From NCBI GenBank assembly GCA_965195195.1, contig CBDAFF010000083.1, positions 4,225 through 68,224 on the forward strand: a stretch of DNA of 64,000 bases. The letters run 5' to 3'. This DNA is from an uncultured Anaerolineales bacterium (GTDB lineage: Bacteria > Chloroflexota > Anaerolineae > Anaerolineales > E44-bin32). Position 1 is the first letter of the stretch; the number at the start of each line of letters is the position of its first letter. The notes beneath the pieces are model-generated. The model ran no database searches. It was given only the letters and a program-made list of their open reading frames with translations, and was not told where the DNA came from. Both the position numbers and the translations under genes were made by a program. Positions 3,171-59,296 of this stretch are shown piece after piece.

Positions 3171-3206
3171 CCCCTTTCATGTCGTTGACGTACACGGATC
3201 TGCATA

Positions 3207-4954: not shown

Positions 4955-5926
4955 TTAGATGTCGATATCCACGATTTTCTGCGTGGCTATAAAACCAGTG
5001 ATGATCATGACCGCTGCAAGAACGATGATTGGGATGCCGCAGCTTCGCGTCTCCGGATTGAAAAACTGCATAATATAGGACCGGTTTATCAAGAAAAGTA
5101 AAGCCACGAGTGCGATGGGCATAGCGGAGATTACCCAGGCTGTCGCTCGCCCCTGAGCGGTCAGTGCTTGGATTTCACCTTTGATTCGCACACGTTCTCG
5201 GATCGTGAATGAAATCGAATCCAGAATCTCGGCCAGGTTACCCCCGACCTCCCGCTGAACATTTATAGCGGTGATCACTAGATCGAGGTCCTCACTATTG
5301 ATTCGACGGAGGAGATGCTCGAGGGCATCCTCCATCATGATACCAAGCTGCATCTCCTGTACCACACGGTGGAATTCTTCGTTAATCGGTTTTGGAAGCT
5401 CGCGGCTGACAGCTTCCATCGCCTGAAGAGTTGAGAACCCGGCTCGCAAGCCATTCACCATCAAGTTGAGCATATCGCTCAACTGATTGTCGAATTTCTT
5501 CAGCCGGTTTTTCTCCTGCCGCTTTACATACATTCGCGGTACAAAAGCACCGAGGATCATCCCAACAACCGCGAATATCATCGAGCTGCTGATAATAAAG
5601 CCAATAACTCCAAAGGCGATTATCGAGATCACAATTACAGCAATGTATTCAGCCGGCCGGAGCTTCAGGTCTGCTCTAGCGAGGTCTCGAGAAAGATTAT
5701 TAAAGAGATCTGAGCCTTCACCAGCCCGTTCCAGGTAATCGGCGATGATCGAGCCACGCTGTTTTTTTGCTTCGTCACCTGATGTGGAGACAACCTGCCC
5801 CTCAGTGTAACGGCCCAAGCGTTCCTCAACGACCGATCGCTCACCCAGTAACGTCATTGCCAGACCAACTACCAGGAGCAGAAGCCCCAGACCGCCACCA
5901 ATGATGAGAACCGTTTGTGGATTCAT
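4955..5926 (-). CDS. tadB: Tad pilus platform protein TadB (T2SS F-domain)
   Basis: N-terminal TM segment, a cytoplasmic helical domain and C-terminal TM segments. Lies adjacent to cpaF. Confidence 0.85.
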   Translation of the reverse strand: MNPQTVLIIGGGLGLLLLVVGLAMTLLGERSVVEERLGRYTEGQVVSTSGDEAKKQRGSIIADYLERAGEGSDLFNNLSRDLARADLKLRPAEYIAVIVISIIAFGVIGFIISSSMIFAVVGMILGAFVPRMYVKRQEKNRLKKFDNQLSDMLNLMVNGLRAGFSTLQAMEAVSRELPKPINEEFHRVVQEMQLGIMMEDALEHLLRRINSEDLDLVITAINVQREVGGNLAEILDSISFTIRERVRIKGEIQALTAQGRATAWVISAMPIALVALLFLINRSYIMQFFNPETRSCGIPIIVLAAVMIITGFIATQKIVDIDI

Positions 5927-7403: not shown

Positions 7404-8669
7404 TTACCGACTGAATAAACCCGTACGTTCGGCTTCAATCTCCTCTTCATCTTCCAAAACGTCAATCAGCACACGTTCTTTAATGCTTCCAAGAATACTG
7501 AAAATACTCTTTGCCGCTGGTTGACCTTTATCGCTGAGAAGGAGAGGAGAACCGCGGTTTATTGAAGTCGTTATCGCCCGTTCATCGAGAGGGATCTCCG
7601 CATCCACAGTGCACTTTAGGTTTTCTGATACCGCATCAGACGATATCCCCGAACGCTTATCGGTCTTATTCAAGACAAAGAAAATTCGTTCCTTCGGGAA
7701 TTCTAAGACACCCAGTAAATCGAACAGCAGTCTGGTGTCTTTAATCGAGGGTATCTCTGGTGTCGCAATAGTGATCAGTAGATCAGCAACATCTAACACT
7801 GCCAATGTAATGTCATCCATATTGGAACTTGTGTCAACAACGACATAGGCGAAATTCCGTTTTAAGAATTGGATGACATTACGTACTTGCCCGGCGGTGA
7901 CTTCATCTGCCACCTCCGGTCGCGGCGGCGCGGCGAGAACCCGCAATCCGGTACTGTGCCGGAGCAGGACCTCATCGACGAACTCTGCATCTAGTTCCTC
8001 CGCTCTGCTGGCTAGATCAATAAAACTGTTCTTCGCTTGCAAATTCAATGAGACGGCAACGTCGCCAAACTGCAGCGCAGCATCTACGAGCACTGTTGGG
8101 GTATCTGCGGTGTCTAAACCAACGGCGATATTTGTCGCCAGCATGGAACAGCCAACACCGCCCTTGGCGCTATAAACAACCATGACTTTTCCTTCAGGGC
8201 GCAGCGATCCAGTGTGTCCCCCTCCTGGACCTTGAACTACGACTGAAGGCAGAGATTGGCTTATCTTGTTCTTCTGTTCGTGTGCAAAAACTGCCAATGT
8301 CCTGATCGTGGATATTAGCTCGTCCGCAGATGGCGGCTTTGCTAGAAAATCCCTGGCTCCTGCTCGCATCGCCCGGCGAACATAGTCAGCGTCATTGTTC
8401 ACAGAAAGCATGACGATTTGAGCGAAGGGAACGTCTCTCACCAGCCCCTCAGTGGCTGTGATGCCGTCCATATCCGGCATATTGATATCCATGATAACGA
8501 CATCAGGCTCCGTTTCACGAGCCATTTCAATCGCTTCTATGCCGGTTCGCGCAGCACCTACGACGACGACATCGGACTCAAACTGAAGAAGTTTGCGTAT
8601 ATTTTCTCGTGTCTCGGCGATGTCATCGACGATCAGGACGCGGATCATCACCTCCGCGTTATCTGTCAT
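7404..8669 (-). CDS. tadZ: TadZ/CpaE-like ParA/MinD-family ATPase with an N-terminal receiver domain
   Basis: The receiver region has VDD...MDINMPDMDG...MLSV...LAKP. The C-terminal part has the deviant Walker A AKGGVGCS of MinD/ParA/CpaE proteins. Confidence 0.85.
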   Translation of the reverse strand: MTDNAEVMIRVLIVDDIAETRENIRKLLQFESDVVVVGAARTGIEAIEMARETEPDVVIMDINMPDMDGITATEGLVRDVPFAQIVMLSVNNDADYVRRAMRAGARDFLAKPPSADELISTIRTLAVFAHEQKNKISQSLPSVVVQGPGGGHTGSLRPEGKVMVVYSAKGGVGCSMLATNIAVGLDTADTPTVLVDAALQFGDVAVSLNLQAKNSFIDLASRAEELDAEFVDEVLLRHSTGLRVLAAPPRPEVADEVTAGQVRNVIQFLKRNFAYVVVDTSSNMDDITLAVLDVADLLITIATPEIPSIKDTRLLFDLLGVLEFPKERIFFVLNKTDKRSGISSDAVSENLKCTVDAEIPLDERAITTSINRGSPLLLSDKGQPAAKSIFSILGSIKERVLIDVLEDEEEIEAERTGLFSR

Positions 8670-8705: not shown

Positions 8706-9851
8706 CTACTGCTGCGGCGGTGCAGGTGGTTGATCATTCGGCAGCTCTGGGATGATCAGATTATCAAGTCCGGGCTCCATCCCATAAGGCAATTTGGTTG
8801 GAACCGTGATCTCATACGTATCGAGCAGGTATTGCAGTGTAACACTGGTCGTTTCTGTTACCTCTCCATCGTTCGGAGCGCGCAAAGTGAACGTGAGATC
8901 TGCTCCAACTTTCATAGCCCAGTTTAATGCCAAGGCCTCCTGGGGAGTGACGATCAAGGTGATGATGTCAGGAGGTTCAATGGTTGGCGCAGGGGCTTGA
9001 CCCTCAGGCGCGGGAGCTCCAACACCTCCCTCAGGAACAGGAATCACCTCTCCTGCAACCTCACCTTCAAGCTGGAAGGTTCCTACATGCAATACGATGG
9101 CAGCTTCGATCAAGCGCTGCGATACCGTGCGCGGCCGTTGACGTTCCTGCGGAATGATATGAAACGGCTGGCCTGTCACTTCTTCCGTCTCAACCTTTCC
9201 AAAGGGAAGAGGTGGAATATTAACATCCTCTGAGGGTTCAGCTCCCACAACGCCCCCGGTGATAAAGCCCGCAGGGAATTCAGCCGTTCCTCCAGAACCG
9301 AATAGAGGCGTCGTTTGATTAGGCAGAATTGTTTGGAAGTCAGGATCAAGGTCTACAAGCAACAGCGTAATCAGGACATCGACCACATCTCCATCCTGCA
9401 TGGCAAAGGCTACACTTGAAAGTCGAGTCATGGGAATAGCAATCGCTGTATAACCCGCTGGAATCGCCAGGGCAGCATTTGATCCGCCCGCGAGTAAATC
9501 GCCAGAAGTCTCCGTAAGCATTGCCTCAGTGAGAGGAACTCCCCGGGCGATATCCTGGCGGGCGATGCGATCGACGATCCGCGAGCGGATTTCATCCTCA
9601 TCCTGGCCGCTGATCATCGTTTCGACGACCAAGTTCGCATTCATGCGGGACATGATTACGCCATCTTCAGGGATCTTCGCTCCACGCGAGATATCCTGAG
9701 CAGCAATAGCCACAAAGACGACATCGACTGGGGGTGGTGTGGCTTCACCTTCCGAGCCAGTACCGCCCCCTCTCCCTAAGAACAGATAAGCGGCTGCAGC
9801 GCCCAGGAGAAGGATTATCGCAAGCAGTATGAAGATGCGGGAACGTCGCAT
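8706..9851 (-). CDS. cpaB: Flp pilus assembly protein CpaB/RcpC-like
   Basis: N-terminal TM anchor, a SAF-like segment (VVFVAIAAQDISRGAKIPEDGV), and a position between tadZ and flp. Confidence 0.8.
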   Translation of the reverse strand: MRRSRIFILLAIILLLGAAAAYLFLGRGGGTGSEGEATPPPVDVVFVAIAAQDISRGAKIPEDGVIMSRMNANLVVETMISGQDEDEIRSRIVDRIARQDIARGVPLTEAMLTETSGDLLAGGSNAALAIPAGYTAIAIPMTRLSSVAFAMQDGDVVDVLITLLLVDLDPDFQTILPNQTTPLFGSGGTAEFPAGFITGGVVGAEPSEDVNIPPLPFGKVETEEVTGQPFHIIPQERQRPRTVSQRLIEAAIVLHVGTFQLEGEVAGEVIPVPEGGVGAPAPEGQAPAPTIEPPDIITLIVTPQEALALNWAMKVGADLTFTLRAPNDGEVTETTSVTLQYLLDTYEITVPTKLPYGMEPGLDNLIIPELPNDQPPAPPQQ

Positions 9852-10079: not shown

Positions 10080-10226
10080 TTATATGGCGTTAACGATGCC
10101 ACTAAACACGTTTCCGATGGCAGGGCCGAGCAACGCAAGAATGACAATCACAACAACAGCCACTAGAACAAGAATTAAGGCGTACTCGACGAGGCCCTGT
10201 CCTTTCTCTTTTGGGGCAAATAACAT
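10080..10226 (-). CDS. flp: Flp-family type IVb pilin (48 aa), absent from the ORF track
   Basis: The reverse strand reads MLFAPKEKGQGLVEYALILVLVAVVVIVILALLGPAIGNVFSGIVNAI. This gives the G/QGLVEY prepilin processing motif followed by a hydrophobic helix. AGGAGG lies 7 nt upstream of the ATG. Confidence 0.85.
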   Translation of the reverse strand: MLFAPKEKGQGLVEYALILVLVAVVVIVILALLGPAIGNVFSGIVNAI

Positions 10227-10387: not shown

Positions 10388-11455
10388 TTATTCCACCTGA
10401 TCCTCTGTAGATAATCGCACGACGATCCTTGCACCCTCGCCAGGTTTGCTGTCTATCTCCACCATTCCCCCGAGGCGTTCAATCTGGTTGCAGAGTACAT
10501 TGAGCGATCGCGATTCGTACTCCTCAGTCTCGATAATTTCAGGATCAAAGCCTACGCCATTATCCTCAATAGAAGCTCTCGCGTTCTTCTCGTCAAGATC
10601 GATCGTGATTTTTACCTGCGTAGCCTGTGCATGGTCGCGTACATTAGCAAGCAATGTCTGGATTGCACGGAAAAGCACAACCTCGTGATGAGATTCTAAA
10701 CGACGCTCAATGCCCGTGTTCAGTACAACGACATCTAAGCCCGTTTTTTCTTTAAACGCTTCAGCATAACGTTTAATAGTGGGCACCAACCCGAGATCAT
10801 CCAACATCATCGGGCGCAATTCGAAAATAAAATCGCGAATTTTTACAAAACTTGAGTTTGCCGCCTCCTTGAGATTTTCAAGCTCTTCGCGTGCTAATTC
10901 GACATCCGTGTCAAATAACCTGGCAGCAATCTCAGTTTGCAGGATAAAATTCGTCAGAACCTGAGCAGGGCCATCATGCATTTGACGCGAAATCTTACGT
11001 CTTTCATCCTCCTGGGCTTGAATGATTTTCCCAAACACGGTTTCCGAACCCCCCAATGGACTTTCCGCTTCTTCAACACCGATATCAGGTTTCTCCCCGA
11101 GGATTTTCAGCGTGCGCGTCAAGTACTCCGAGAATGTTTGAAGATGCTCCTCATCACTCTGCAGCTTCTCAAGCTGTCCGCGCATCGTGTAAAGGCGCTG
11201 TTGAGCATCAAGTGCGTCATCATAGGCCGTGCGGATATCCTCACGCGGGACAGTGTCGAAATGAGCCTGCAGTTGATGGATGCGGCTTGTGATATTAGCG
11301 TTGCGTTTCGCTAACTTTTCAACCTCGCCATGGCTTTGCTCGACAAGAAGCCTAATTTCCGTAATCCCTCGCTGCGCCTTGTCAAGGTGAGCGTGGGACT
11401 CCTCAAGGAAGGCTTCGAGGGGAGTGAGTTCTACAGCACCTTCATTCTCGGTCAT
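10388..11455 (-). CDS. Cytoplasmic sensor histidine kinase, HisKA_3/DegS-like
   Basis: No TM segment. A coiled-coil N-terminus is followed by the H-box ISRQMHDGPAQ and a C-terminal HATPase (DNGVGF). Confidence 0.85.
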   Translation of the reverse strand: MTENEGAVELTPLEAFLEESHAHLDKAQRGITEIRLLVEQSHGEVEKLAKRNANITSRIHQLQAHFDTVPREDIRTAYDDALDAQQRLYTMRGQLEKLQSDEEHLQTFSEYLTRTLKILGEKPDIGVEEAESPLGGSETVFGKIIQAQEDERRKISRQMHDGPAQVLTNFILQTEIAARLFDTDVELAREELENLKEAANSSFVKIRDFIFELRPMMLDDLGLVPTIKRYAEAFKEKTGLDVVVLNTGIERRLESHHEVVLFRAIQTLLANVRDHAQATQVKITIDLDEKNARASIEDNGVGFDPEIIETEEYESRSLNVLCNQIERLGGMVEIDSKPGEGARIVVRLSTEDQVE

Positions 11456-11467
11456 AACTGCTCCGGA

Positions 11468-12160
11468 TTATTTCCTCGTATCCTGTAGCCGTACCCATCC
11501 ATGCCTGAGGGCATACACAGCAGCCTGGGTTCGGTCTTCGACGTCTAACTTATGAAGTATAGCTGTCATATGGTTCTTTACAGTTTGATGGCTGATTCCC
11601 AATTTGGCTGCGATCTCCTTGTTACTCATGCCTCGTGTGACATATTGCAGAATCTCCATCTCGCGGGGTGAGAGCGGCGTGAAGGCTTCAATATCACCAT
11701 CTAGATGTGGTCGCCGTACGGCTTCAACACCACGAGAAAGCCAATCTTCAAGACCCTCTGCATCAAATACCTGGTCACCCACAATATAGAATCCACGGGC
11801 GACCTGCCGGACAATATCGACCAACTTCCCCGCCTCAACATCCTTCGAACAATATGCGGAGGCGCCCGCACTGAAAGCATGCAGGACTTGCTCAACATCG
11901 TCGTATGCCGTCAGGAGCACAATGGATGTATCTAAACGCTCAGCTTTTATCTGCCGCGTGACCTGCATACCATTCATGTTGGGCATATTAATGTCGATCA
12001 ATGCCACACGGGGGCGCAATTCACGCACCAATTGCAGCGCTTGATCGCCACTTGTCCCTTCCGCCAGAACATTCAAATCATCCTCAGCATCAATGACGCT
12101 TCGGACCCCCTCACGGAAAAGCGGATGATCATCGACAATGATGATACTGAATTTTTCCAT
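11468..12160 (-). CDS. NarL/LuxR-family response regulator (DegU-like)
   Basis: Receiver domain (IIIVDDHPLF...LIDINMPNMNG) plus a LuxR helix-turn-helix (LSPREMEILQYVTRGMSNKEIA). I chose the ATG at 12160 because GGTGG lies upstream. The open frame extends to 12202. Confidence 0.9.
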   Translation of the reverse strand: MEKFSIIIVDDHPLFREGVRSVIDAEDDLNVLAEGTSGDQALQLVRELRPRVALIDINMPNMNGMQVTRQIKAERLDTSIVLLTAYDDVEQVLHAFSAGASAYCSKDVEAGKLVDIVRQVARGFYIVGDQVFDAEGLEDWLSRGVEAVRRPHLDGDIEAFTPLSPREMEILQYVTRGMSNKEIAAKLGISHQTVKNHMTAILHKLDVEDRTQAAVYALRHGWVRLQDTRK

Positions 12161-12227
12161 AATATCGCCACCTTTAATATTTGACCGCGGGGAGTATAGC
12201 ATACTCAGATGATGCCGGGCAAACTCG

Positions 12228-13700
12228 TCAACGCCATCGGTAGATGGCCATATTTTCCCCGCCCGCTTGAGGTGAGAACTCCGAGTCCGTGGAGTATATC
12301 AACTCGCGGCCGCTGACTAAACGTGGATACCATCCCGGGAAAGTCATTAAGTAATCAGCGTAATGTCGATCAAGGAAGGAATCAAGAGCAACTTCACTGC
12401 GCATGATAGGTATCACCTCTGGCGTCACCAGGCCGGCAAGGTCGATGATCCCTCGCTTTCCAAAGTAACCGAGGGCTCCGATATCATGAGCTGCGATGGA
12501 CGAATCTGATTCCGTGTTCTCCGCTATCCAACGGGAAGCTCTTACCATCTCTGTTTCAATGATGGCGACATCAAGAGCATATGCCTGAGAACCCTGCCAC
12601 CAAAAAGTAACCACGACTGCTCCGAGCGAAATAATCCAAAAGCGATGGATGAAACGTCTTACCCTCGATTCCTCATACTGTGAGTACCAAATCCGGATCC
12701 CCTCGAAACCGACAACCAGTAGAATTGGTATTGTTGGGATGGCGTAACGGCCGTGCTGGTAGGTGGCGGGGAGTCGGAAAGCGTAAGCACCTATATAGGC
12801 ACCTGCCCAGATGATCGGAGCTAGCCGTTCCCATGAACGGGATTTAATCGCCTGGCTAATATAAAACAGAATACCCGGCAGCAGAATGATTAAAGCCCCG
12901 GCGGCGATCGCATTAAGTTGATCGAAGTAACGATAGAGGAAGGGTGACTGCTGAAGGACGCTGTACTCCACTTGCTTGGCGTAGAAAGTGCTTGGCCAAA
13001 CCGAGCCTGCCACGGACCAGTTCAAGGTCAAGTAGATCAGAAATGGTCCAGCTATGCCAACGATAACTCGCAGCAATGCGGCTCCAATTTGCCGTAGATT
13101 CCCTTGATGCATGATGAAAATAATCCAGGCTGCCGGAAGGAGAAGAGTCAACGCGTCCGGACGGACCCAGATACCGATGCCAATCAACACCCCCAAGCTA
13201 AAGAAGCCAAACACCCCCTTCGCCAATATCCAAAAAAATAGAACGGAGATAAATGCAAGAAGAATGGTCTCCATTCCTGACAACGCTGCCCAAACAAGAT
13301 GCCACTCTAAAAGAAGTAGTGCTGCCAATCCAATTCCCCACACACTGAAGGAACGATCCCTGGTTCTAACCCAGTCGACAGCTAGCCAGGCGGTCGCAAT
13401 CAATGCAGTTACACCAAGCCCATAAGTCCACCATTTGTATGGGATCTTTAATACATATCCGAGGGCAATTAGGGCGCTCCACAATGGAGCCGTCGAACCA
13501 GCGCTTGCTTGACCCGGAATGAACGACCACTCCCCCATTTCCCCGAGGTTACGGGCATATGTTTGATGAATCCACGCGTCGTCTAGAGGGAAGCCAAGAG
13601 AAATTTTTTGCGCGCATATGATAAGGAAAGCCCCAGCGGAGAGAGCCCCCACTGCGATGACAGCAAATAAAAATAACTTTCGTTTAGTGGAACCCTTCAC
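12228..13700 (-). CDS. Polytopic membrane protein, GT-C-like glycosyltransferase candidate (1 of 7)
   Basis: 490 aa with more than 10 predicted TM helices. The acidic motif PLDDAWIHQTYARNL follows TM1, and a soluble C-terminal domain is present. Confidence 0.65.
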   Translation of the reverse strand: MKGSTKRKLFLFAVIAVGALSAGAFLIICAQKISLGFPLDDAWIHQTYARNLGEMGEWSFIPGQASAGSTAPLWSALIALGYVLKIPYKWWTYGLGVTALIATAWLAVDWVRTRDRSFSVWGIGLAALLLLEWHLVWAALSGMETILLAFISVLFFWILAKGVFGFFSLGVLIGIGIWVRPDALTLLLPAAWIIFIMHQGNLRQIGAALLRVIVGIAGPFLIYLTLNWSVAGSVWPSTFYAKQVEYSVLQQSPFLYRYFDQLNAIAAGALIILLPGILFYISQAIKSRSWERLAPIIWAGAYIGAYAFRLPATYQHGRYAIPTIPILLVVGFEGIRIWYSQYEESRVRRFIHRFWIISLGAVVVTFWWQGSQAYALDVAIIETEMVRASRWIAENTESDSSIAAHDIGALGYFGKRGIIDLAGLVTPEVIPIMRSEVALDSFLDRHYADYLMTFPGWYPRLVSGRELIYSTDSEFSPQAGGENMAIYRWR

Positions 13701-13719
13701 ACCCTCACCTTTATTTCGC

Positions 13720-15276
13720 TCATTGGATTTCGAAAATCAGCACCGGCTCGTTATTGTGATCAAAGAACCTCACCCGCTCCTTCATCCATGGCACCTTTAT
13801 CTGGCCATGGTAAAGATCCGCCAGTCCTTCTGGGTGATTTACATCAAGTATGACCCACTCGACTGCGAAACGATCCACTACCTGATGTAATTCAGCTTCC
13901 CCACCATTCGGTATTACGACCGAACCCCGCAAAGATGAAAGATAGAAACCCGGCGGATTGTTGATGGCCACGATGCTGTCGTCAGAATCGAAGTTATTCA
14001 ATGTTGCTGCTGCTGCATCATAGGTTCGCTTCGGTCCCATCCAGAGAAGAGTATTCGTTTGAATTCCTATCACCTTCGTTACAAAGAGACCTACAGTGAG
14101 CATGGCCGCCATTGCAAATACCGTGACCGCAAACACCCGCTGCGCCTGCGCTTCATCCCAGCGACGGAGATGGCTCAGCCACTGAATAGCTCGATGAAGC
14201 CCGGCAGGAACGAGTACCCACAGCAGCGGCATCAACGCCGCGCTGGAATGGAAGAGTCCTCCAAGAGACCCGGCAAAAGGGAAAACGAAGCTCATCGTGA
14301 GGAATAAAACCACGAGATAGATCGCAGCCAGGCGGGTTTCAAACGCCTGCCACAATTCACGGAAACCAAGGATCATAAATGGAGCCAGTATGACCAAGCC
14401 ATTTTCGCCAATGAGCCGTTGTAGGTTTATCCAAAGTGCAGCGAACCTCACCTGCAGAATTGCGGATAAACCTTGTGAGATGAAGTGCTGGAGGGTCAAA
14501 ATGCTGCTAGGGTAGCTGAACAGTTCTGGATACGATCTCAACCACAGTGTCTTTGCTCCTGTCGAGGAGAGAAGTGATCCCACGATCAGATAATTTCGCA
14601 AAAACCACGGGGCCATAACTAGGAAGTAACCGGAGACCATCAATGCGAAGCGCTGAAGTTTCCTCTCACTTGAATAAGAGACGGCAGCAAGCGCAGGCAG
14701 GAAAAGGAGAAGCCCATCGGCGCGGGCGAGATGCGCCAGACCGATCATCATTCCTGAGACGAGCCAAGCACCGTTCCTTCCGCTACGTAAACCTTTCCCG
14801 GTAAAGTAGAAAAAAACGGCTCCAATTAGAGCGTAGACAATAAAAACATCCGTGGTCAGAAAGTATGGAAAGTAAAACCCTGGGACGAGAGCCAGCAAGC
14901 CCGAATACCATGCCCAGCTTCGATTGCCATGAACCTGGAGAGCAAGTGCAGCAGTGACCAAAGGAAGCGACGCACTCATCATGATGAATGGAATCTGCGC
15001 CACTCTAAATGCCTGCCCTAAGAAAGCCATCGGCAAAGCTGCGATAAGCGATGTGAGTGGCAGCCAATAAAGATGTGACGGATGCGGTAATCCAGTCGGA
15101 TCATCCAGATAATTCCAGAGAAATGGTTCGATGAACCCATGGCCTCGTGATAATTCTTGACCCGTAGCAAAATAGTAATCTGCATCCATGTAGCCAGGGC
15201 TTTGAATCCAAATGGCCCCAAGCCCTGCCACAAAAAGTCCAAGAACAAATAGCGATATCCAACGCCAGGTCCGCAT
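13720..15276 (-). CDS. Polytopic membrane protein, GT-C/GT39-like glycosyltransferase candidate (2 of 7)
   Basis: 518 aa and multi-TM. YMDADYYF follows TM1, and a soluble C-terminal domain is present. Confidence 0.65.
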   Translation of the reverse strand: MRTWRWISLFVLGLFVAGLGAIWIQSPGYMDADYYFATGQELSRGHGFIEPFLWNYLDDPTGLPHPSHLYWLPLTSLIAALPMAFLGQAFRVAQIPFIMMSASLPLVTAALALQVHGNRSWAWYSGLLALVPGFYFPYFLTTDVFIVYALIGAVFFYFTGKGLRSGRNGAWLVSGMMIGLAHLARADGLLLFLPALAAVSYSSERKLQRFALMVSGYFLVMAPWFLRNYLIVGSLLSSTGAKTLWLRSYPELFSYPSSILTLQHFISQGLSAILQVRFAALWINLQRLIGENGLVILAPFMILGFRELWQAFETRLAAIYLVVLFLTMSFVFPFAGSLGGLFHSSAALMPLLWVLVPAGLHRAIQWLSHLRRWDEAQAQRVFAVTVFAMAAMLTVGLFVTKVIGIQTNTLLWMGPKRTYDAAAATLNNFDSDDSIVAINNPPGFYLSSLRGSVVIPNGGEAELHQVVDRFAVEWVILDVNHPEGLADLYHGQIKVPWMKERVRFFDHNNEPVLIFEIQ

Positions 15277-15333
15277 CTTGAGAACTACCTCGTTAATCTC
15301 TATTAGCTTTAAAAGGTGTCCCTATCCAAAAGA

Positions 15334-16866
15334 TCAATCTAGGTTTACATTTTCTCTGCTTTCAAACCTGTAAAGGGATAAATCATCCCAGGCGGTTTGT
15401 TCAACCAGGCTATAGTGTTCTTCCAGCCATGAAAGGTGGGGATGTTTTTTCGCTCCAAGCGCATCATAATCGTCGAGCTCGCGCCCGAACATCACGAAAA
15501 ATACCTGCCGCGCGTCCCCAACCGCGTGGATCGCATCCGGTTGGGCAATAAGACCCAGTACTTCTTGTGTCGGCAACGCGAGGGTATCGCTCCCTGATCC
15601 AGGTGGATCGGCAATATAAGTATGCGGAAGCGACTCATCATAGTAATAAGCTGGGAGCATTGTGATTTTATTCGAGTGCAAGACAACCCCTCCCTCTTCT
15701 ATCTCGGAGTTGATGTAATCATTCACATTTTCAAATGGAGCATAAGGAAATCCCCGATAGGCTACACGAGAGAATAACCCAATCGCAAAAGCTAAAGCTA
15801 AACAACCGATCATGAGGTACGACTCCACGCGTCGCCCCGCACGGGGTGCAATAACCCACGCGATCCAGAGTAGAAAGATGACGCCGGAGGGCACTAAGCC
15901 CCGCACGACAAACAGGGGCCGAATCTGCGAGACAAGAAAAAGAAGAAGAACTGGGGCAGCGCTTAAATAAATCAACCAAATTACCCGCTCTGCGCGAGGA
16001 TCCCCCTCTCGAACCGCCCGGAATGTAATTACTCCCGCAAGAACAATCACAAGCAATGCACAAAAAAGAGTGACCGGAAGCCAACTTACATTGATAGGGA
16101 GACCAGAAATAAAGGACAGGACTGTTTGAACCAGGTCCACCAGCGTAGGCTTCGTAATCCAGTAAGCACGTTCGACTTTCGCAACTTGTGCAGGAAGCTG
16201 AAGTCCCCAGGGTAAATACAAAACAATCGCGATAAGCGCCGAGAGTAATGCGGGTCGAAATAATCTCACCTTGCGGAAATACAGCGGGGATAACCAGAGA
16301 GGGATGAGATAGAAGACTGCCAGGACATGCGTATACATCGCTAGAGCCGCAAAGATGCCAAAGGCGACCCATGGGAAATACTTGCCCCCTTGGATGCCCC
16401 TCCAAACGCACAGAGTGGCGAAAACGATCCATAGACTGAGAAGGCCGTACATACGCGCTTCCTGTCCGTAATGCACCTGGAAAGGCGCGAAGGAAAATAA
16501 TAACCCTGCCAATACAGCCTGCTTCAATCCAAACATCTCTTGCATCAGATACCATAGCAAGATGAGCAATGCGAGGTGAATTAGAACCGATAGGAAACGA
16601 ACGAAGATGACTTTCTGGCCAAAAAGCAGCATCCAAGCCCAGAGAAGCGTGTAATAGAGCAACGGGTGCACATCCGCGGCTGTTCCGTCTACGAGCCCCA
16701 GAGTTCCCTGCAGCATTGCCTTCGGGCCTGTGCGCGAAAATAGAATAGAGAATGCCTCGTCATACCACAGAGAGCGTGAAGCTAAGGATGGAATTCGGAT
16801 GGCGAGGACAAGCGCGAGAAGCGCGAGTAATAATATTTTCGTATTTTTCTGCAAAAATACTGTCAA
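15334..16866 (-). CDS. GT39/ArnT-PMT-like glycosyltransferase candidate (3 of 7)
   Basis: 510 aa and multi-TM. SLWYDEAFS follows TM1, a typical first-loop D-E motif of the ArnT/PMT-like family. Confidence 0.7.
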   Translation of the reverse strand: MTVFLQKNTKILLLALLALVLAIRIPSLASRSLWYDEAFSILFSRTGPKAMLQGTLGLVDGTAADVHPLLYYTLLWAWMLLFGQKVIFVRFLSVLIHLALLILLWYLMQEMFGLKQAVLAGLLFSFAPFQVHYGQEARMYGLLSLWIVFATLCVWRGIQGGKYFPWVAFGIFAALAMYTHVLAVFYLIPLWLSPLYFRKVRLFRPALLSALIAIVLYLPWGLQLPAQVAKVERAYWITKPTLVDLVQTVLSFISGLPINVSWLPVTLFCALLVIVLAGVITFRAVREGDPRAERVIWLIYLSAAPVLLLFLVSQIRPLFVVRGLVPSGVIFLLWIAWVIAPRAGRRVESYLMIGCLALAFAIGLFSRVAYRGFPYAPFENVNDYINSEIEEGGVVLHSNKITMLPAYYYDESLPHTYIADPPGSGSDTLALPTQEVLGLIAQPDAIHAVGDARQVFFVMFGRELDDYDALGAKKHPHLSWLEEHYSLVEQTAWDDLSLYRFESRENVNLD

Positions 16867-16911
16867 AGTTCCTCGCTTTTCTCTCTGAGCATAAGCACCC
16901 GTTCCATAAAT

Positions 16912-18141
16912 TCAGTCCTCCCACATTGGTAGACGAGTTGAACTTATGACCCACCAACGCGACCAGAGCAGCCCGAGCAGGGTTAGGATCGGTAGAGGCA
17001 GATACATCACAGCGTGTTCAACGTTCCCCTGCACGGTTACCAAGAATAACATCCACAACCCGACTAACAACCCCAAGAGTGTCAGCAAGGACGCGATCAA
17101 TCCGCCTTTGCCCCAACGATCTTCCCAGGTCTTGAAAATTATCAACAAAGCAGGCAGCATGACGACAAAATTCGTCGTAGCAGTCCGAAAAGCGATGAGG
17201 TTCGTGATCACAATTGTCAGCGCGGCCGCCCATTGGAACCATGGATCATCCTTGCCGGCTGCCATAATCCATTCCCATAATAAATAAAGAGATAGCAACC
17301 CGGTGAGGATCAGGTTAGCGATCCCGCCTCCTCCTGGTAGGAAGCTTGTTAGAATCGAGATCGGTGACCCCAGATCGGTGTAACTGGGATACGAAAGCAA
17401 TTGACCCAACCACCCCAACGGCCAACTCGGTAAGGCAATGAGAGAGCCGGCGATAAGAACCGTTATCACCCCAAGGAACCACCCCACGATCTTTAATCTT
17501 CGAGCGCGGAGAGACCAAATGAGGACGAAGGGGATAATTAGAAAAGACATCTGCGGCTTGGCAATCGTCAATGCCAGGACAATGCCGGCAGCCTCATCCA
17601 TCTCCCTTTGAATAGCGAGAAGAGCGATCGCGATTAAGACTGCTTCTATCACCGCAAATTGACCTATGATCACCGCCCGCGCGCCGTGATACCAGAGAAT
17701 AGAAAACAGGATGATGGCAGCCTGCACCAATCGATTCGGCGACCAGCGCGCCAAACGAAGACCTATGAGGCCTAGGACCACCAGGTATATCTCAAGGAGT
17801 GTCATCCAAATTGCGCGTGCTATCGGGAAAGGCAATAATCCGAAGGGTCCAAAAAACAACATAGCCGGAAGCGGGTAAACAAAATGGGCGATATCTTCAC
17901 CCTTTGAAGGGTCGGCTGGTCGGCCATAAATCATCGTCTGCGCGGCGAGACTAACCTCTTCATCGTATGGATTGACACCTTCAACCAGCCAGTAATGCGC
18001 GCCTGTCCATCGGGCGAGGAAATCATTACCCCCGGGAGATTGGCGCACAAAGCTGTAATTGGCGACAAACAAGCCAATAAGAAAACCGAATAGACCAATC
18101 AGAAGAGCGATTCTTAGCCAGTTTGGCAGATAGTATTTCAA
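16912..18141 (-). CDS. DUF2029/GT87-like membrane glycosyltransferase candidate (4 of 7)
   Basis: 409 aa and multi-TM. GGNDFLARWTGAHYWLVEGVNPYD follows TM1, resembling PimE/GT87-type mannosyltransferases. Confidence 0.6.
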   Translation of the reverse strand: MKYYLPNWLRIALLIGLFGFLIGLFVANYSFVRQSPGGNDFLARWTGAHYWLVEGVNPYDEEVSLAAQTMIYGRPADPSKGEDIAHFVYPLPAMLFFGPFGLLPFPIARAIWMTLLEIYLVVLGLIGLRLARWSPNRLVQAAIILFSILWYHGARAVIIGQFAVIEAVLIAIALLAIQREMDEAAGIVLALTIAKPQMSFLIIPFVLIWSLRARRLKIVGWFLGVITVLIAGSLIALPSWPLGWLGQLLSYPSYTDLGSPISILTSFLPGGGGIANLILTGLLSLYLLWEWIMAAGKDDPWFQWAAALTIVITNLIAFRTATTNFVVMLPALLIIFKTWEDRWGKGGLIASLLTLLGLLVGLWMLFLVTVQGNVEHAVMYLPLPILTLLGLLWSRWWVISSTRLPMWED

Positions 18142-18253
18142 ACTTCACCCCCGGAAACGGCTCGACAAACCATACTCTTCGAGGAACGAAATATTATCGA
18201 TTCTCTTTCGATAGTTAGTTGTTCCCCATTGTGAGATCCCATAAACATCATCC

Positions 18254-19735
18254 CTATTGAGGAAAGCTGAGAACGACCGCAAGCTCATCCTCGTAGTCGA
18301 TTTCCCAGCCTTGCGATTCAAGGCGTATCCTCAGAGGAGCCCAGGGCTCGAGCAACACTATCTCGATATCCCACGTCTCAAAGACTTGTTCCCAGCCTTG
18401 TAAGCCTCGCCAGCTAATGAGGTATTCATCCAGAATCTCGTCGTCGAAGAGATCCGTTCGACCGTCTACAAAACTAAGAAAATCGGGATGAAGCTCCCAA
18501 ATAACATAACCTCCCCAGTTATATGAATTAAAAAGGTTCTTGTTAGGCTTGACAGACCGTAGATATTCAACCGCACGAACCGGGAATTCCTCCTCGATTG
18601 CATCCTGGTTCACCTGAGAAGATAACGACAACGAGATCTTCAAGCCCGAAGCTACAACTAATAATAAAAATACAGTAAGGTTCACCCACTTGGCGGCACT
18701 TTGCGGAAGCTGCACCGCAGAACCTGAGCCGAGGTGCATATCATCCAGAATTTCATCAAGATGGCGTGTGATAACCGGCGCGGCAACGAGTGCAAATAAT
18801 GCGATATTCCGGCTAGCGAGAAGAGCAAGCGCTAGAAATACGAGAACAAGGATGATTTCCGTGGGATCACCCCTGCGGCGAGACCTGTATAAAGTTCCGA
18901 TTAGAAGCAATAACATCAGAAGAAAGGGTAAAACCTGAGCCTGATGAAAATTTGGAGATTGCCATTCCTGAATGTAATCCTGAAGAACCTGAATAGAGAC
19001 CGTCTTGAAGGGGTAAAGAAGCATCTGTGGTCCGTGCGGATTGATTGAAACCGCTAGAGCGCAAAGAAAACTGACCAAAAGAAGGTTGAATATCTCCCTT
19101 TTGTGCTGATCCCACGCGGATCGCCAATCCCCGTCACCTTGAAAAGCTTCGTGGACCAGCTGGACGGTTTCTCCGCAAAGATAAACTCCAAGGATCAAAA
19201 AGCCGATCGCGAAACCTCCATGCACATTAACCCAGAGAATCATCGCCAACGGAAGTGACCATAGCAACCACGTTCTTCGCTTCCGAGGAGGATAGAGCAC
19301 GAATAGGAAATAGCCTGCAAGAACAAAGCTGATGATCTGCGGTCGTGCGGACCAATACACTCCGGAAGCAGACGCAGCGAGCAGGATAACGAAAGCCTTA
19401 AGCAGGTCTCGACCCTCGAGCGTGCACCACACGAACGCGAAAGCAGCCACCACCATCAACGCAGTGAATAAATTTAAACCTGCGAAGCTGAAGTTCCGAA
19501 AGGCGGCATAGAGAAGAATCTGCGCAAGCCATCCGGGGTAAATCCAAGCAGAGCCCTGACGTGTAAGTGAATAAAGATCCGTTCGCAGGATCGCCCGATT
19601 GGCAAGCATCCACTCACCCGCTTTTAGATGCCACCACGTATCGTAGCCAATGGAGGCACGGACAGCCATGGTGAAAATAGCCAGGAAAGTGATACCAAAC
19701 ACCAGGCGTTTGAACGTCATAGGTGTGCCTTCCAT
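18254..19735 (-). CDS. Polytopic membrane protein, GT-C-like candidate (5 of 7)
   Basis: 493 aa and multi-TM. GYDTWWHLKAGEWM follows TM1, and a soluble C-terminal domain is present. Confidence 0.55.
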   Translation of the reverse strand: MEGTPMTFKRLVFGITFLAIFTMAVRASIGYDTWWHLKAGEWMLANRAILRTDLYSLTRQGSAWIYPGWLAQILLYAAFRNFSFAGLNLFTALMVVAAFAFVWCTLEGRDLLKAFVILLAASASGVYWSARPQIISFVLAGYFLFVLYPPRKRRTWLLWSLPLAMILWVNVHGGFAIGFLILGVYLCGETVQLVHEAFQGDGDWRSAWDQHKREIFNLLLVSFLCALAVSINPHGPQMLLYPFKTVSIQVLQDYIQEWQSPNFHQAQVLPFLLMLLLLIGTLYRSRRRGDPTEIILVLVFLALALLASRNIALFALVAAPVITRHLDEILDDMHLGSGSAVQLPQSAAKWVNLTVFLLLVVASGLKISLSLSSQVNQDAIEEEFPVRAVEYLRSVKPNKNLFNSYNWGGYVIWELHPDFLSFVDGRTDLFDDEILDEYLISWRGLQGWEQVFETWDIEIVLLEPWAPLRIRLESQGWEIDYEDELAVVLSFPQ

Positions 19736-19921
19736 CTACTAATGCTGGATGATGAATGCATGATATTTTCCTGTGGAGAACCACCCGATCCAATTTGCAG
19801 ATGTATAAACATCCACCCCAAATTATCCAGTTTCACCCTTGCATCTCCTGTGCCAATAGCAGAAGAATACTCATCAGCTTCAAACTTACCCAAGCTGCCT
19901 TGATAAGGCTGCTTGCTGCAG

Positions 19922-21541
19922 CTAATTTCCCAACCAGGCTTCGCCGATCTCCTCGGGTCGCACGGGGCGTGAGAGATTATAGAAGATTTGGTAATCCCCG
20001 ATCATTTCCTCCTCCCACACTACTCCAAGCCTACGGAAACTCGCCCTGATGCTCTCATCAAGGGCTGGATGGAATGTAGTGATGTATGCAACGCGGTCAC
20101 TTCGTTCCACGAGAACCTGGTATGGTTCATAGCGATCATCCCGAGCGGTGTATCGGAAATCCAGATGGTACGGGAGCCTGGGGATATAGATCAACTCCTC
20201 GTCTGACTCAAAGGCAAGCGGATAGGAAACCCAATAGTTAGAATACCCCCTCGTCTCTCCATGTTTGGATAGAAAATCGACAAGCTGCTCATCAAACCTG
20301 TGATTAACCCTGGTGACTGCATCAAATTGTGTGGTCATCCCAGGAGGATATTGGGCCGCTGCTTCCAGGTTGCTCCACAAGTTGAACGCTACAACAAATA
20401 CCAGGATCAACGCACGAAATCGTGCGTTGATCTTGAAAGCCGGCTGGGCGAAGAAGTCTCCTGCGAAAATTGCCAAGGTGAAATAAACAGGAAGAAAATA
20501 CCGACCTGACGGGTCGGATCCAAATGGAGTAACCACAAACATAAGGATCACCGCACCCATAACACCTGCAACCATCCAGTAAATCGCTCGCCGCGAGCTC
20601 TCATCCCGCAACCTGTGAAAAATTTGGATAAACACCAACAACCAGAAGACCAAAGCCAAGGGCACTAGTAAAAGAGCGATGGGTTCGGTCGTCCATGGGG
20701 GTCGAAATCCAAGAGTCACAGTAATTCCAAAGAGGAAAATATATTGGATATGTTTGGCTATCGTTGATAGGAACGCCGAGCCTGCATCGACCACAATTGC
20801 GGACCCAAAGAGTTCTTGAAATAAAACGCTGACACCATTTTCATAAGCCCAGATGATGAGTGGTAAAGCGCCGATAATTCCCGCAATAAAGATCAACGCT
20901 CCTTGAACCCACCATCGACTCCGCCGCGATTTAATCAAGCTGCGTACTACGATAACGGACGTCGGTAGGATGTATGCGATGGTCAACCCAAATGCCCAGA
21001 AACCGAGACCGGAAAAGAAACCCCACAACAGGTAGTTCATAGTATTGTCGGGTTGCTCATCAATTTGGACCGCCAGGAGAAGGAGCACTGCTCCAATAAG
21101 AAGCGCTTCCCCATACCCGCCAAGAGAGACGGTTGTGTAGAGGGTTAAGTTCACTGTGGGTACGGCTAAGAGCAAACCTGTTACCAGCCCCGCGAGTTGA
21201 CTCCTAAATATTCGCGCACTCAGATTTACGGCCAGAATAATCGTCCCGAGATAGAGCAGAATTTGGATCGCCCGGATGACGAAGACTTCGCTGCCGAAGA
21301 TCGTGAAGCCCAGCGCGGCGAGAGTCGCGTCCAGGCTTCCCATGTAGGTTTGTCCATAGAAGAAGACCGGCCAATTCCCTTCCAGGATATGGCGAGCCAT
21401 CAAGCCAACAATCGCTTCATCTGCGTTAAAGGGGAAAGCCCCTACGCTTAGAAGAGCTACTTTTAAAATGACGGCGAGGAAGAACAGACCAATGAGTATC
21501 CATATCAACAATTGGCGCGTTTGATCTGACTTTCCCATCAC
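19922..21541 (-). CDS. GT39/ArnT-like glycosyltransferase candidate (6 of 7)
   Basis: 539 aa and multi-TM. FPFNADEAIVGLMARHILEG follows TM1, and a soluble C-terminal domain is present. Confidence 0.7.
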   Translation of the reverse strand: MMGKSDQTRQLLIWILIGLFFLAVILKVALLSVGAFPFNADEAIVGLMARHILEGNWPVFFYGQTYMGSLDATLAALGFTIFGSEVFVIRAIQILLYLGTIILAVNLSARIFRSQLAGLVTGLLLAVPTVNLTLYTTVSLGGYGEALLIGAVLLLLAVQIDEQPDNTMNYLLWGFFSGLGFWAFGLTIAYILPTSVIVVRSLIKSRRSRWWVQGALIFIAGIIGALPLIIWAYENGVSVLFQELFGSAIVVDAGSAFLSTIAKHIQYIFLFGITVTLGFRPPWTTEPIALLLVPLALVFWLLVFIQIFHRLRDESSRRAIYWMVAGVMGAVILMFVVTPFGSDPSGRYFLPVYFTLAIFAGDFFAQPAFKINARFRALILVFVVAFNLWSNLEAAAQYPPGMTTQFDAVTRVNHRFDEQLVDFLSKHGETRGYSNYWVSYPLAFESDEELIYIPRLPYHLDFRYTARDDRYEPYQVLVERSDRVAYITTFHPALDESIRASFRRLGVVWEEEMIGDYQIFYNLSRPVRPEEIGEAWLGN

Positions 21542-21565
21542 GGATAGCCTCTGTATAATGCGCGG

Positions 21566-23071
21566 GTGCGTTTAAATAAATTCTTCAAACCCCAATGTCT
21601 CATACCGCTTCTCGCTATTGCACTCCGACTGATACCCGGAGCTCGAACCGTCGATGATGCCTTCATCACCTTCCGCTATGCCCAAAACCTCATCGCCGGG
21701 AATGGTCTTGTGTACAACCCGGGCGAATGGGTTTTAGGAACGACGACGCCCCTTTACGCTTTGTTGATTGCCGCCATAGGTTCTATCACAGGTGGCATCC
21801 AGGCTCCCTATCCAGAAATCGCAGTAGTAATTAGCGCTATTGCCGATGCGATGAGTTGCTTGATTATCATCCGTTTCTCGACGAACCTTGGATACCGCCG
21901 TGCTGGTATAGCTGCTGCATTGATATGGGCCGTTGCTCCGATGTCTGTCACTTTCGCGATTGGCGGCATGGAGACGAGCCTATTCATCCTCCTAATGTTG
22001 GGCACATTTTACATGCATTCGACCAACCAGCCAGTCCTCGCTGCCTTTATCGGCTCACTCAGCCTGCTAACCCGCCCTGATGCCCTTCTTTTTCTCCTTC
22101 CTCTAGGTCTTGAGCGCGCCTATCGAATATTCCGTTCGCACAATCGTCGCTTGCCACTTGCAGAGATCGCATCCTTCGTCATTCCAGTACTCATATGGTC
22201 CATTATTAGTACTATCTACTATGGGGATCCTCTCCCCCGCTCGATGGCGGCAAAAGCGGTTGCCTACTACCTTCCACCTGAAGCCGGAATCGTTCGACTG
22301 CTTCAGCATTATGCTACACCGTTCTTTAGCCACCTTGTTTTTGGAGCCTTCTCAATCGCGATTGGAATCATCCTATTTCCGACCCTCTTCATGATTGGCT
22401 GGTGGAGAATCATACGGGATAGAACCTGCATATGGCCCCTGGCCATCTACCCGATCCTCTATTTGTTCGTATTTTCAATCGCTAATCCGCTAATTTTTCG
22501 ATGGTACCTTACACCCCCGCTTCCCATATACTTTCTGGGGATCTTTATCGGCATTGAGGTATTAGGGCGGAATCTTCATTCACCGCTCCCTCTTACCATC
22601 TGCGGCATATTAGCGTTCGGCTTCACGCTCCACGGATGGACACTGCATCCGGATCATGGCCTGGATAGACCGGCACCGAAGATGGCCTATATTAAACTTG
22701 AAGAAGTTTATAGGCAGGTCGCATCCGATCTTCAGGGACAGATTCGCGAGGAGCAGATCCTCGCCGCTGCGGACATAGGGGTTTTGGGTTACTACACAGG
22801 ATCTCGCATTCTGGACACTGTCGGCTTAATCTCGCCTGAGAGTGAGGTTTACTACCCGCTTCCCGACGATTTCTATATCACCAACTACGCAATTCCCCCT
22901 GATCTCATCCACCAAGAAAAACCAGACTACCTTATATTCTTGGAGGTGTACGGTCGAAATGGCCTGCTTATGGATCCGCAGTTCCTGGACGAATATGATT
23001 TATTATTTCGGTACCAGACGGATATTTATGGGTCGGATGGGATGTTAGTCTACGTTCGTGTTAAACGATGA
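21566..23071 (+). CDS. Polytopic membrane protein, GT-C-like candidate (7 of 7), divergent from the other six
   Basis: 501 aa. TVDDAFITFRYAQNLIAGNG follows TM1 and resembles the motif in gene 1 of the array. GTG start. The gap to the divergent neighbour is only 24 nt. Confidence 0.65.
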   Translation: MRLNKFFKPQCLIPLLAIALRLIPGARTVDDAFITFRYAQNLIAGNGLVYNPGEWVLGTTTPLYALLIAAIGSITGGIQAPYPEIAVVISAIADAMSCLIIIRFSTNLGYRRAGIAAALIWAVAPMSVTFAIGGMETSLFILLMLGTFYMHSTNQPVLAAFIGSLSLLTRPDALLFLLPLGLERAYRIFRSHNRRLPLAEIASFVIPVLIWSIISTIYYGDPLPRSMAAKAVAYYLPPEAGIVRLLQHYATPFFSHLVFGAFSIAIGIILFPTLFMIGWWRIIRDRTCIWPLAIYPILYLFVFSIANPLIFRWYLTPPLPIYFLGIFIGIEVLGRNLHSPLPLTICGILAFGFTLHGWTLHPDHGLDRPAPKMAYIKLEEVYRQVASDLQGQIREEQILAAADIGVLGYYTGSRILDTVGLISPESEVYYPLPDDFYITNYAIPPDLIHQEKPDYLIFLEVYGRNGLLMDPQFLDEYDLLFRYQTDIYGSDGMLVYVRVKR

Positions 23072-54265: not shown

Positions 54266-54281
54266 ATCAAGCGCTAAGGGC

Positions 54282-59281: not shown

Positions 59282-59296
59282 CGTGATTCTCCCTCG

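Follow-up and report, generated by a model that had tools for sequence, protein, structure and literature searches.

An uncultured Anaerolineales bacterium (Chloroflexota) carries seven consecutive genes for polytopic membrane proteins, and fold, family and catalytic-site evidence supports all seven as GT-C-type glycosyltransferases. We call these genes G1 to G7, numbered from position 12228 upward within the 64-kb stretch of DNA that was analysed as a whole and that we refer to as the window (assembly GCA_965195195.1, contig CBDAFF010000083.1). G4, G2 and G1 belong to a conserved core that leads into a two-component system and the flp-tad genes of an adhesion pilus. We consider it probable that the array is an extracytoplasmic assembly or decoration line that would use polyprenyl-phosphate sugars as donors and make an envelope glycopolymer, a product and an acceptor that we infer by analogy with the glycosyltransferase sets of mycobacteria. 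The seven proteins are new and distant members of the GT-C superfamily.

Fold, families and catalytic residues of the seven proteins

A first-pass annotation of this DNA had described seven back-to-back genes encoding 409-539 aa, six on the minus strand and one divergent, and the list of open reading frames (ORFs) gives identical coordinates. These are real genes, as they stay together as an ordered block across 20 loci in genomes and 80 in metagenomes.

12228-13700 (-), G1, 490 aa: AftB-like GT-C, core member
13720-15276 (-), G2, 518 aa: PMT_2/ArnT-like GT-C, core member
15334-16866 (-), G3, 510 aa: PMT_2-family GT-C, accessory
16912-18141 (-), G4, 409 aa: GT87 (PimE-type) GT-C, core member
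18254-19735 (-), G5, 493 aa: unannotated GT-C-fold family, accessory
19922-21541 (-), G6, 539 aa: PMT_2/ArnT-like GT-C, accessory; heads the minus-strand run
21566-23071 (+), G7, 501 aa: AftB-like GT-C, divergent paralogue of G1, accessory

Structure models were built with AlphaFold2 (AF2) for G1 and G5 from alignments of database homologues. Both models (pLDDT 88.5 and pTM 0.90 for G1; 88.0 and 0.88 for G5) show about 11 membrane helices followed by a C-terminal alpha/beta domain, which measures about 90 aa in the G1 model and about 90-110 aa across the two proteins. When the models were compared with the PDB using Foldseek, the top 20 matches of G5 were all GT-C enzymes (STT3, AglB, ArnT, AftA and AftD; E 7e-9 to 9e-4, TMq 0.44-0.57), as were the top 34 matches of G1 (STT3, ArnT, AftB, PglB, ALG9, AglB, DPY19, AftA and AftD; TMq up to 0.66). 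GT-C enzymes were matched at probability 1.0 and transporters at no more than 0.15, with a TM of about 0.1. We assign G1 and G5 to the GT-C enzymes because their models match solely such enzymes in the PDB, and a transporter or flippase identity was rejected on the same results. Among the significant matches of G1, AftB gives the lowest root-mean-square deviation (6.7 Å). The presence of STT3 and AglB among the top fold matches of G5 and G1 reflects the shared GT-C_A core. An STT3-like oligosaccharyltransferase identity was rejected for both proteins, which have an AftB/ArnT-like R-P motif but neither WWDYG nor the large C-terminal domain; the closest string to WWDYG in G5 is YNWGGY at 405-410.

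The earlier count of 10 or more transmembrane helices per protein turned out to be about right rather than exact: hydropathy peaks gave 9-13 hydrophobic segments in each of the seven, on either side of the roughly 11 helices of the two models and inside the range of 7-13 helices that marks the GT-C_A fold. A non-hydrophobic C-terminal tail of about 60-150 residues extends past the last hydropathy peak in every protein except G4, which is without a C-terminal soluble domain.

Family searches lead to the same superfamily. Against the Pfam gathering cut-offs, G3 matches PMT_2 (PF13231) at 41.4 bits (cut-off 26.1), and G4 matches GT87 (PF09594) at 45.4 bits over residues 87-251 (cut-off 25). For G2 and G6, PMT_2 is found at E <= 0.01 in 8 of 11 orthologues (best E 1.2e-8) and in 8 of 8 orthologues (best E 4.5e-7), respectively. 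The PMT_2 matches of G2, G3 and G6 are confined to the 160-residue PMT_2 core. G1, G5 and G7 gave no Pfam match in a single-sequence scan. In NCBIfam the array proteins have weak, sub-threshold matches only, all to putative or known GT-C proteins (LA_3751/2, MT1671 mannosyltransferase, AZOBR_p60025 and AftB). G5 has no genuine match in either database, a sub-cut-off CcmH match at 18 bits having been set aside as spurious, and 10 distant representatives of its family are likewise without a Pfam match. Orthologue profiles of G5, G1, G2, G6, G4 and G3 found no meaningful match among PDB chain sequences.

G7 alone among the array profiles finds AftB by sequence; the G1 profile does not. The match of G7 to AftB (PDB 9dlf) has a phmmer E-value of 3.4e-6 over about 215 residues, in the N-terminal half only, and reaches 3e-9 with the orthologue profile. 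G7 scores 30.2 bits against the AftB equivalog model NF041481 (NCBIfam), whose cut-off is 1050. On sequence comparison, then, G7 and G1 are distant AftB-like homologues and not AftB orthologues.

The strong mutual divergence noted in the first-pass annotation is borne out. BLASTP relates G1 to G7 (27% identity, E 6e-11) and leaves the remaining pairs at E > 0.1, which rules out recent tandem duplication, and profile-profile comparison agrees with it that these are old diverged paralogues. With hhalign, probabilities are 99.8% for G1-G7, 95% for G1-G2, 92% for G3-G7, 91% for G3-G6, 86% for G2-G6 and 82% for G2-G3, and G4 and G5 are unlinked to the remaining array proteins. The sequences divide into at least four old groups: G1 and G7 are AftB-like, G2, G3 and G6 are PMT_2/ArnT-like, G4 is GT87/PimE-like, and G5 represents its unannotated family. 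That seven enzymes would have seven distinct specificities, as had been proposed, may be read from this divergence. The G1/G7 and G5 groups are very large families without a Pfam model and thus candidates for new CAZy GT-C families. The G5 family has at least 1,921 close homologues, every one named 'hypothetical', and 33,676 cluster representatives (50% identity) at E <= 1e-3. The G1 family has at least 5,240 matches and no Pfam match; one source name is 'arabinofuranosyltransferase'.

An acidic motif directly after the first transmembrane helix had been pointed out in every protein, and each quoted motif does lie within about 10 residues of the first hydrophobic segment. In orthologues drawn from related loci, with 27-60% identity, the acidic residues of the first loop show no or almost no variation, even where identity falls to 27-40%. 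The motifs, with their start residues, and the orthologue consensus are as follows.

G1: DDAWI, residue 40; consensus PLDDAWIHQTYAR
G2: DADYY, residue 31; consensus PGYMDA[DE]YY (D31), 17 sequences
G3: YDEAF, residue 35; consensus WYDEA (D36 E37), invariant in 13 sequences
G4: NDFLA, residue 39; consensus PGGNDFLARW (D40), invariant in 20 sequences
G5: YDTWW, residue 31; consensus DTWWHL (D32), of which the Asp alone survives in the most distant sequence
G6: ADEAI, residue 40; consensus PFN[AS]DEA (D41 E42), conserved
G7: DDAFI, residue 30; consensus [VI]DD[AS][FY]IT (D30 D31)

The DD motif of AftB supplies its essential catalytic residue, D62, which sits at the tip of juxtamembrane helix 1 (JM1); E172 and R221 make contact with the donor (PMC12041299). 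The alignment of G7 with AftB pairs D30-D31 with D61-D62, E136 with E172 and R170 with R221, and D30/D31, E136 and R170 are invariant in 10 G7 orthologues. The corresponding residues of G1 (D40, D41, E144 and R180) are invariant across G1 and 29 homologues, as is D32 of G5 in 30 homologues. The tip of the first juxtamembrane helix is where the catalytic Asp of GT-C_A enzymes sits (PMC12041299, PMC12041525). In the G1 model D40/D41 stand at this tip, immediately before the first helix after the first transmembrane segment (H40-55), and in the G5 model D32 immediately precedes the equivalent helix (H33-46). The acidic residues of G2, G3, G4 and G6 would by their position in the sequence occupy the same place. 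In PimE the catalytic D58 at the JM1 tip is hydrogen-bonded to Y62, four residues on (PMC12041525), whereas the residue at +4 from D40 of G4 is Arg; no alignment of G4 to PimE spans this loop. The retained equivalents of the phosphate- and sugar-binding R221 and E172 of AftB point, if only indirectly, to a possible use of polyprenyl-phosphate donors by G7 and G1.

A conserved core in a shared neighbourhood

We scanned one genome per species with G4 as the query, which gave 20 loci, and metagenomes with the G1 family alignment, which gave 80 further loci at 42-88% identity. Nineteen of the 20 genome loci are labelled as Anaerolineales, Anaerolineae, Chloroflexia or Chloroflexota metagenome-assembled genomes (MAGs), the closest with 92-100% protein identity. 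The remaining one (L006, JAIWHF010000036.1) is binned as a 'Methanosarcinales archaeon', and its G4-G1, response regulator, histidine kinase, RcpC and TadZ are 89-100% identical at the protein level to those of the window; it is probably a contig from Anaerolineales that was wrongly binned into an archaeal MAG.

The block from rpoD to tadZ is syntenic as a whole down to about 40-50% identity. In fractions of the metagenome loci that hold enough DNA, G2 lies immediately upstream of G1 in 52/52 and G4 no more than five genes ahead of G1 in 23/24. A response regulator or histidine kinase is the next gene downstream of G1 in 60/63, and the kinase lies within three genes of G1 in 45/47. Flp follows G1 in 30 of 38 loci, RcpC/TadZ likewise in 30 of 38, and CpaF with TadB/C in 17 of 23. 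In the complete genome CP070708.1 the core is intact, in the order GT87-PMT_2-PMT_2-PMT_2-G1, response regulator, histidine kinase, flp-tad. The conserved core is thus G4...G2-G1, with G3, G5, G6 and G7 as lineage-variable accessories. Five loci (L057, L071, L074, L084 and L088) have the array without downstream Tad genes.

Gene spacing indicates that the core glycosyltransferase genes form one operon, because the gaps are short or overlapping. Median gaps are -4 nt for G2-G1 (69 loci) and for G4-G3, 49 nt between G1 and the response regulator, 6-12 nt between regulator and kinase, about 130 nt between kinase and flp, and about 206 nt between flp and rcpC. The window itself has gaps of 186 nt (G6-G5), 112 nt (G5-G4), 45 nt (G4-G3), 57 nt (G3-G2), 19 nt (G2-G1), 25 nt (G1 to response regulator) and 12 nt (regulator to kinase). 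From these distances, G2 is probably translationally coupled to G1 and the core operon probably continues into the two-component genes, with separate transcription units likely for flp and the tad genes. A consensus scan for promoters and terminators over 9.8-25.1 kb gave counts not above those of shuffled sequences and no usable operon boundaries, so the operon prediction rests on gene spacing; a promoter-like site ahead of flp (10311-10283) is a consensus match only.

The maximal ORFs of G6 and G7 (21541-21566) start just 24 bp apart in divergent orientation, which means that the annotated ORFs must contain the real start codons or promoters; the two maximal ORFs overlap in one relative (L010). 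A 301-aa ORF within G3 (15731-16636, minus strand) and other overlapping ORFs were taken as shadow ORFs.

The arrays of relatives hold further genes. The array of L010 counts nine polytopic genes, among them those for a DUF2079 protein and for a PMT_2 protein of 673 aa. Two others (L011 and L019) have additional PMT_2 and GT87 copies, with genes for GT2, GT4, WbsX, a methyltransferase and a hexapeptide acyltransferase upstream of G4. In L012 an NAD-dependent epimerase/dehydratase gene sits between G5 and G4 and a second epimerase gene adjoins G7; L016 and L017 have an ORF of equal size at the position of the first, known by size and place only. Immediately upstream of G2-G1, L029 (3971-8317) carries GT2, FrhB-like, methyltransferase and MprF-flippase-like (LPG_synthase_TM) genes, and L092 (1604-2617) an MprF-flippase-like gene without GT2. 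In Gtr-type and pentofuranose three-component systems, composed of a GT2, a flippase and a GT-C, a lipid-linked monosaccharide of cytoplasmic origin is flipped across the membrane to serve the GT-C outside (PMC11127046). The insertions in L029 and L092 are candidates for the donor-synthase and flippase partners missing from the window.

On the minus strand of the window the genes run in the order G6-G5-G4-G3-G2-G1, response regulator, histidine kinase, flp-rcpC-tadZ-cpaF-tadB-tadC, ComF-like and HPF. The genes downstream of G1 are the following.

11468-12202 (-), response regulator, NarL/LuxR-type, with Response_reg and GerE domains; 25 nt downstream of G1
10388-11455 (-), histidine kinase, DegS-like HisKA_3, with HisKA_3, HATPase_c and DegS domains; 12 nt after the response regulator
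10080-10226 (-), Flp pilin, 48 aa, between the kinase and rcpC; leader MLFAPKEKGQG, mature LVEYALILVLVAVVVIVILALLGPAIGNVFSGIVNAI (starting LVEYALILVLV)
8706-9851 (-), rcpC/cpaB (Pfam RcpC/SAF)
7404-8669 (-), tadZ (Pfam Response_reg and ParA/TadZ_N)
5930-7357 (-), cpaF/tadA (Pfam T2SSE)
4955-5926 (-), tadB (Pfam T2SSF)
3966-4904 (-), tadC (Pfam T2SSF)
2595-3923 (-), ComF-like (double zinc ribbon and PRTase) and the ribosome hibernation factor HPF, after tadC

The response regulator is 96-100% identical in close relatives. The histidine kinase shows no hydrophobic segment when its sequence is read by eye and was therefore called cytoplasmic/soluble. The Flp pilin is near-identical in about 60 related loci while other proteins there diverge to 40-50% identity.

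On the far side of the array lie rpoD, a gene for an H+-pyrophosphatase and a gene for a 790-aa protein (27612-29984, plus strand) with a Wzy_C domain of the O-antigen ligase/PglL type and C-terminal TPR repeats, syntenic in the close relatives L008 and L009. This protein, encoded in a phylum that has no LPS, could be a glycan polymerase, ligase or O-oligosaccharyltransferase tied to the same surface glycan. A second Tad-related set (51677-62467 and 40992-45569, both on the minus strand) comprises TadE-like proteins of 764, 638 and 240 aa, a TadG/VWA protein and a prepilin peptidase, with two-component and GGDEF genes dispersed in it and a 1525-aa adhesin with cadherin/Big_9 repeats close by. 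A 1054-aa TPR-rich protein is encoded at 31301-34465 (plus strand), where AT skew is positive and G+C content is raised to 0.56, compared with about 0.50; an antisense ORF of 358 aa within its gene (32203-33279) is probably a shadow ORF.

A probable envelope glycopolymer and its alternatives

In the pathway that we propose, lipid-phosphate sugar donors would be made and flipped by genes elsewhere in the genome, and up to seven GT-C enzymes, with active sites facing the outside of the cytoplasmic membrane, would take sugars from these polyprenyl-phosphate donors. The conserved Asp at the JM1 tip of each would act as catalytic base or nucleophile, each enzyme would form a different linkage, and their common product would be a complex cell-envelope glycopolymer, either a wall-linked polysaccharide or a lipoglycan, of a bacterium that is wall-atypical and without LPS. 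The analogy is with PimE, MptA-C, EmbA-C and AftA-D, which build lipomannan/lipoarabinomannan (LM/LAM) and arabinogalactan in mycobacteria. As the core reads into a DegS/DegU-like two-component system and adjoins flp-tad, the surface glycan and the adhesion pilus may be co-ordinated.

We favor one pathway because of the ordered synteny across the 20 genome and 80 metagenome loci, the constant places of G2 and G4 relative to G1, and the -4 nt gaps. Glycan biosynthesis is suggested because the arrays of relatives hold epimerase, GT2, GT4, WbsX, methyltransferase, acyltransferase and flippase-like genes. The atypical envelopes of the Chloroflexota are layered although LPS/BAM genes are missing, and polysaccharide or protein has been proposed as the material of the layers (PMC13319060); the envelope-glycopolymer reading fits the phylum for this reason.

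Several points weigh against this reading. GT-C enzymes glycosylate proteins or lipids too. As single sequences, G2 (23.3 bits) and G6 (24.9 bits) fall slightly under the PMT_2 cut-off. The accessories are present in a part of the metagenome loci (G3 in 9/24, G5 in 12/20, G6 in 11/20 and G7 in 2/20), and in CP070708.1 a G5 homologue stands alone, about 2 Mb from the core, so the seven genes are not an obligate unit. The first-pass annotation had seen no cytoplasmic glycosyltransferase or sugar-activation gene interleaved in the array, and neither is there one among the Pfam-scanned ORFs of the 64-kb window, in which we likewise found none of the donor-synthesis genes (polyprenyl-phosphate GT2, UbiA-type phosphoribosyltransferase, DprE1/2) and no flippase. 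Finally, synteny runs on into unrelated genes, with the ComF-like gene after tadC in 12/14 loci and HPF in 14/14. Since these are kept just as well, adjacency alone is weak evidence of shared function, the Tad association may be partly inherited gene order, and we do not take Tad synteny as proof of function.

The neighbourhood and the PMT_2 matches raise the main alternative, namely that the enzymes, especially the core G4-G2-G1, O-glycosylate the Tad pilus or other secreted or surface proteins. Candidate targets would be the Flp pilin, the very large TadE-like pseudopilins, RcpC and the cadherin-like adhesin, and the process would resemble the PMT-type O-mannosylation of Actinobacteria or the pilin arabinosylation by TfpW in Pseudomonas. 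We regard this as unlikely, if still deserving attention, for the two-component genes follow the core in nearly all loci and Flp and RcpC/TadZ in most of them, and the window is rich in Tad-type surface proteins. G2, G3 and G6 fall in PMT_2, a family named for protein O-mannosyltransferases (PMTs), and G3 and G6 have a 'DE' pair in loop 1; PMTs also have a DE pair in loop 1. TfpW of Pseudomonas aeruginosa is a further precedent, a GT-C with a DDX motif whose gene lies beside pilA and which adds D-Araf to pilin (bioRxiv 10.1101/2020.04.19.049825), and G1 and G7 are AftB-like. Nevertheless, mature Flp is an almost wholly hydrophobic peptide of about 37 residues that offers a single conserved Ser/Thr and lacks any N-x-S/T sequon, and N-glycosylation of Flp was rejected on these grounds. 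The flp gene lies about 130 nt from the kinase gene and probably has its own promoter, the Tad adjacency may be inherited order given that ComF and HPF are equally syntenic, and the five loci named above carry the array without downstream Tad genes. G1-G7 also lack a TfpW-like TPR domain, and four to nine GT-C genes accompanied in relatives by epimerases, GT2 and GT4 suit a complex polymer better.

A related and doubtful possibility is that the core G4-G2-G1 is a dedicated accessory module of the Anaerolineae Tad pilus, under the DegS/DegU-like system whose genes lie between the two. The module would glycosylate pilus or pseudopilin proteins, or else make the envelope glycan on which or through which the pilus is put together in these multilayer-walled bacteria without an outer membrane. 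If true, this would be a previously undescribed Tad-associated system of extracytoplasmic glycosylation, and it would give the G1/G7 and G5 families, as new GT-C families, their first functional context.

The variable membership of the array, the unlinked G5 homologue of CP070708.1, the extension of synteny to the unrelated ComF-like and HPF genes and the lack of donor-pathway genes among the scanned ORFs of the window could also mean that there is no pathway. The seven GT-C enzymes would then work independently of one another on unrelated targets (lipid head groups glycosylated in the manner of ArnT, different wall polymers or different glycoproteins, for instance), brought together through slow genome rearrangement, and the link to the two-component and Tad genes would be meaningless. 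We find such a collection improbable: the core gaps are overlapping or very short, indicating co-translation, G2-G1 adjacency holds without exception in the 52 loci at 42-88% identity, and the genes inserted into relatives' arrays are again for glycan biosynthesis and not random.

That the proteins are transporters, flippases or polymerases with a superficial GT-C resemblance is very improbable and largely refuted: the G1-G6 profiles have no sequence relative in the PDB and G1 and G5 have no Pfam family, but searches that could have pointed to non-glycosyltransferase families gave GT-C assignments instead, by Foldseek for G1 and G5 (GT-C probability 1.0, E down to 7e-9), by Pfam for G3 and G4 and for the orthologues of G2 and G6, and by the match of G7 to AftB, whose catalytic and donor-binding residues are kept in G7 and G1.

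An array that builds an envelope glycopolymer would extend a mode of synthesis that has been studied closely almost only in Mycobacteriales. GT-C enzymology is as expected here and clusters of several GT-C genes are already known from that order; what is new lies in the phylum, in families that lack annotation, in the array's size and in its conserved neighbourhood. The block suggests multi-enzyme GT-C glycan assembly in a distant phylum, and with four to nine conserved GT-C genes it is the best genomic handle yet on the envelope glycan of Chloroflexota. In sediments, digesters and wastewater, Anaerolineae rank among the most abundant of all uncultured bacteria. The close and conserved placement of the array by a two-component system and flp-tad, the latter encoding an adhesion pilus that is highly expressed (PMC4877987), makes a link between surface glycan and adhesion or aggregation a testable hypothesis; adhesion or aggregation matters in practice for granular sludge and bulking. 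In a search that covered subscription journals thinly, we found no literature on a GT-C array, or on its coupling to a two-component system and tad, in Anaerolineae or Chloroflexota, and a paper on an Anaerolineales Tad cluster does not mention glycosyltransferases.

Comparison with known glycosylation systems

Among single enzymes, a close parallel is AftB, a terminal beta-1,2-arabinofuranosyltransferase (PDB 9dlf/9dlh), whose DD (D62), E172 and R221 positions are kept in G7. The C-terminal domains are unmatched, however, the equivalog score is 30 bits against 1050, and the substrate cannot be read across. G2, G3 and G6 share the transmembrane core and the first-loop acidic motif with ArnT and the PMTs (PMT_2; CAZy GT83/GT39), but unlike eukaryotic PMTs the array proteins are without MIR domains. 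G5 and G1 differ from STT3, PglB and AglB (GT66) in having neither WWDYG nor the large C-terminal domain.

Gtr-type and pentofuranose three-component systems (GT2 or PPPRS, flippase and GT-C; GT136) are resembled by the gene sets of L029 and L092. In the window, by contrast, there are seven GT-C genes in place of one, no synthase or flippase among the scanned ORFs and no link to an O-antigen locus. TfpW offers a likeness of arrangement: its gene adjoins that of a pilin, and it is a GT-C with a DD(X) motif. In the window, two genes (the response regulator and the histidine kinase) separate the core array from flp. The substrate of TfpW is a type IVa pilin, and the enzyme carries a TPR domain at its C terminus, whereas the pilin here is a 37-residue Flp and G1-G7 have no TPR matches.

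The mycobacterial and corynebacterial GT-C sets (PimE, MptA-C, EmbA/B/C and AftA-D) are also composed of several diverged and partly clustered enzymes, to which the AftB-like G7 and G1 and the GT87 protein G4, of the same family as PimE, add a likeness of individual members. Each mycobacterial enzyme makes one extracytoplasmic linkage from polyprenyl-phosphate sugars, and we propose that the array enzymes would do the same. The array proteins are shorter, at 409-539 aa, and do not have the large CBM-type domains found in Emb and AftD. The array also differs from the mycobacterial sets in belonging to the Chloroflexota, in having no DPA/PPM synthesis genes found nearby, in the contiguity of all seven genes and in adjoining a two-component system and Tad pilus genes.

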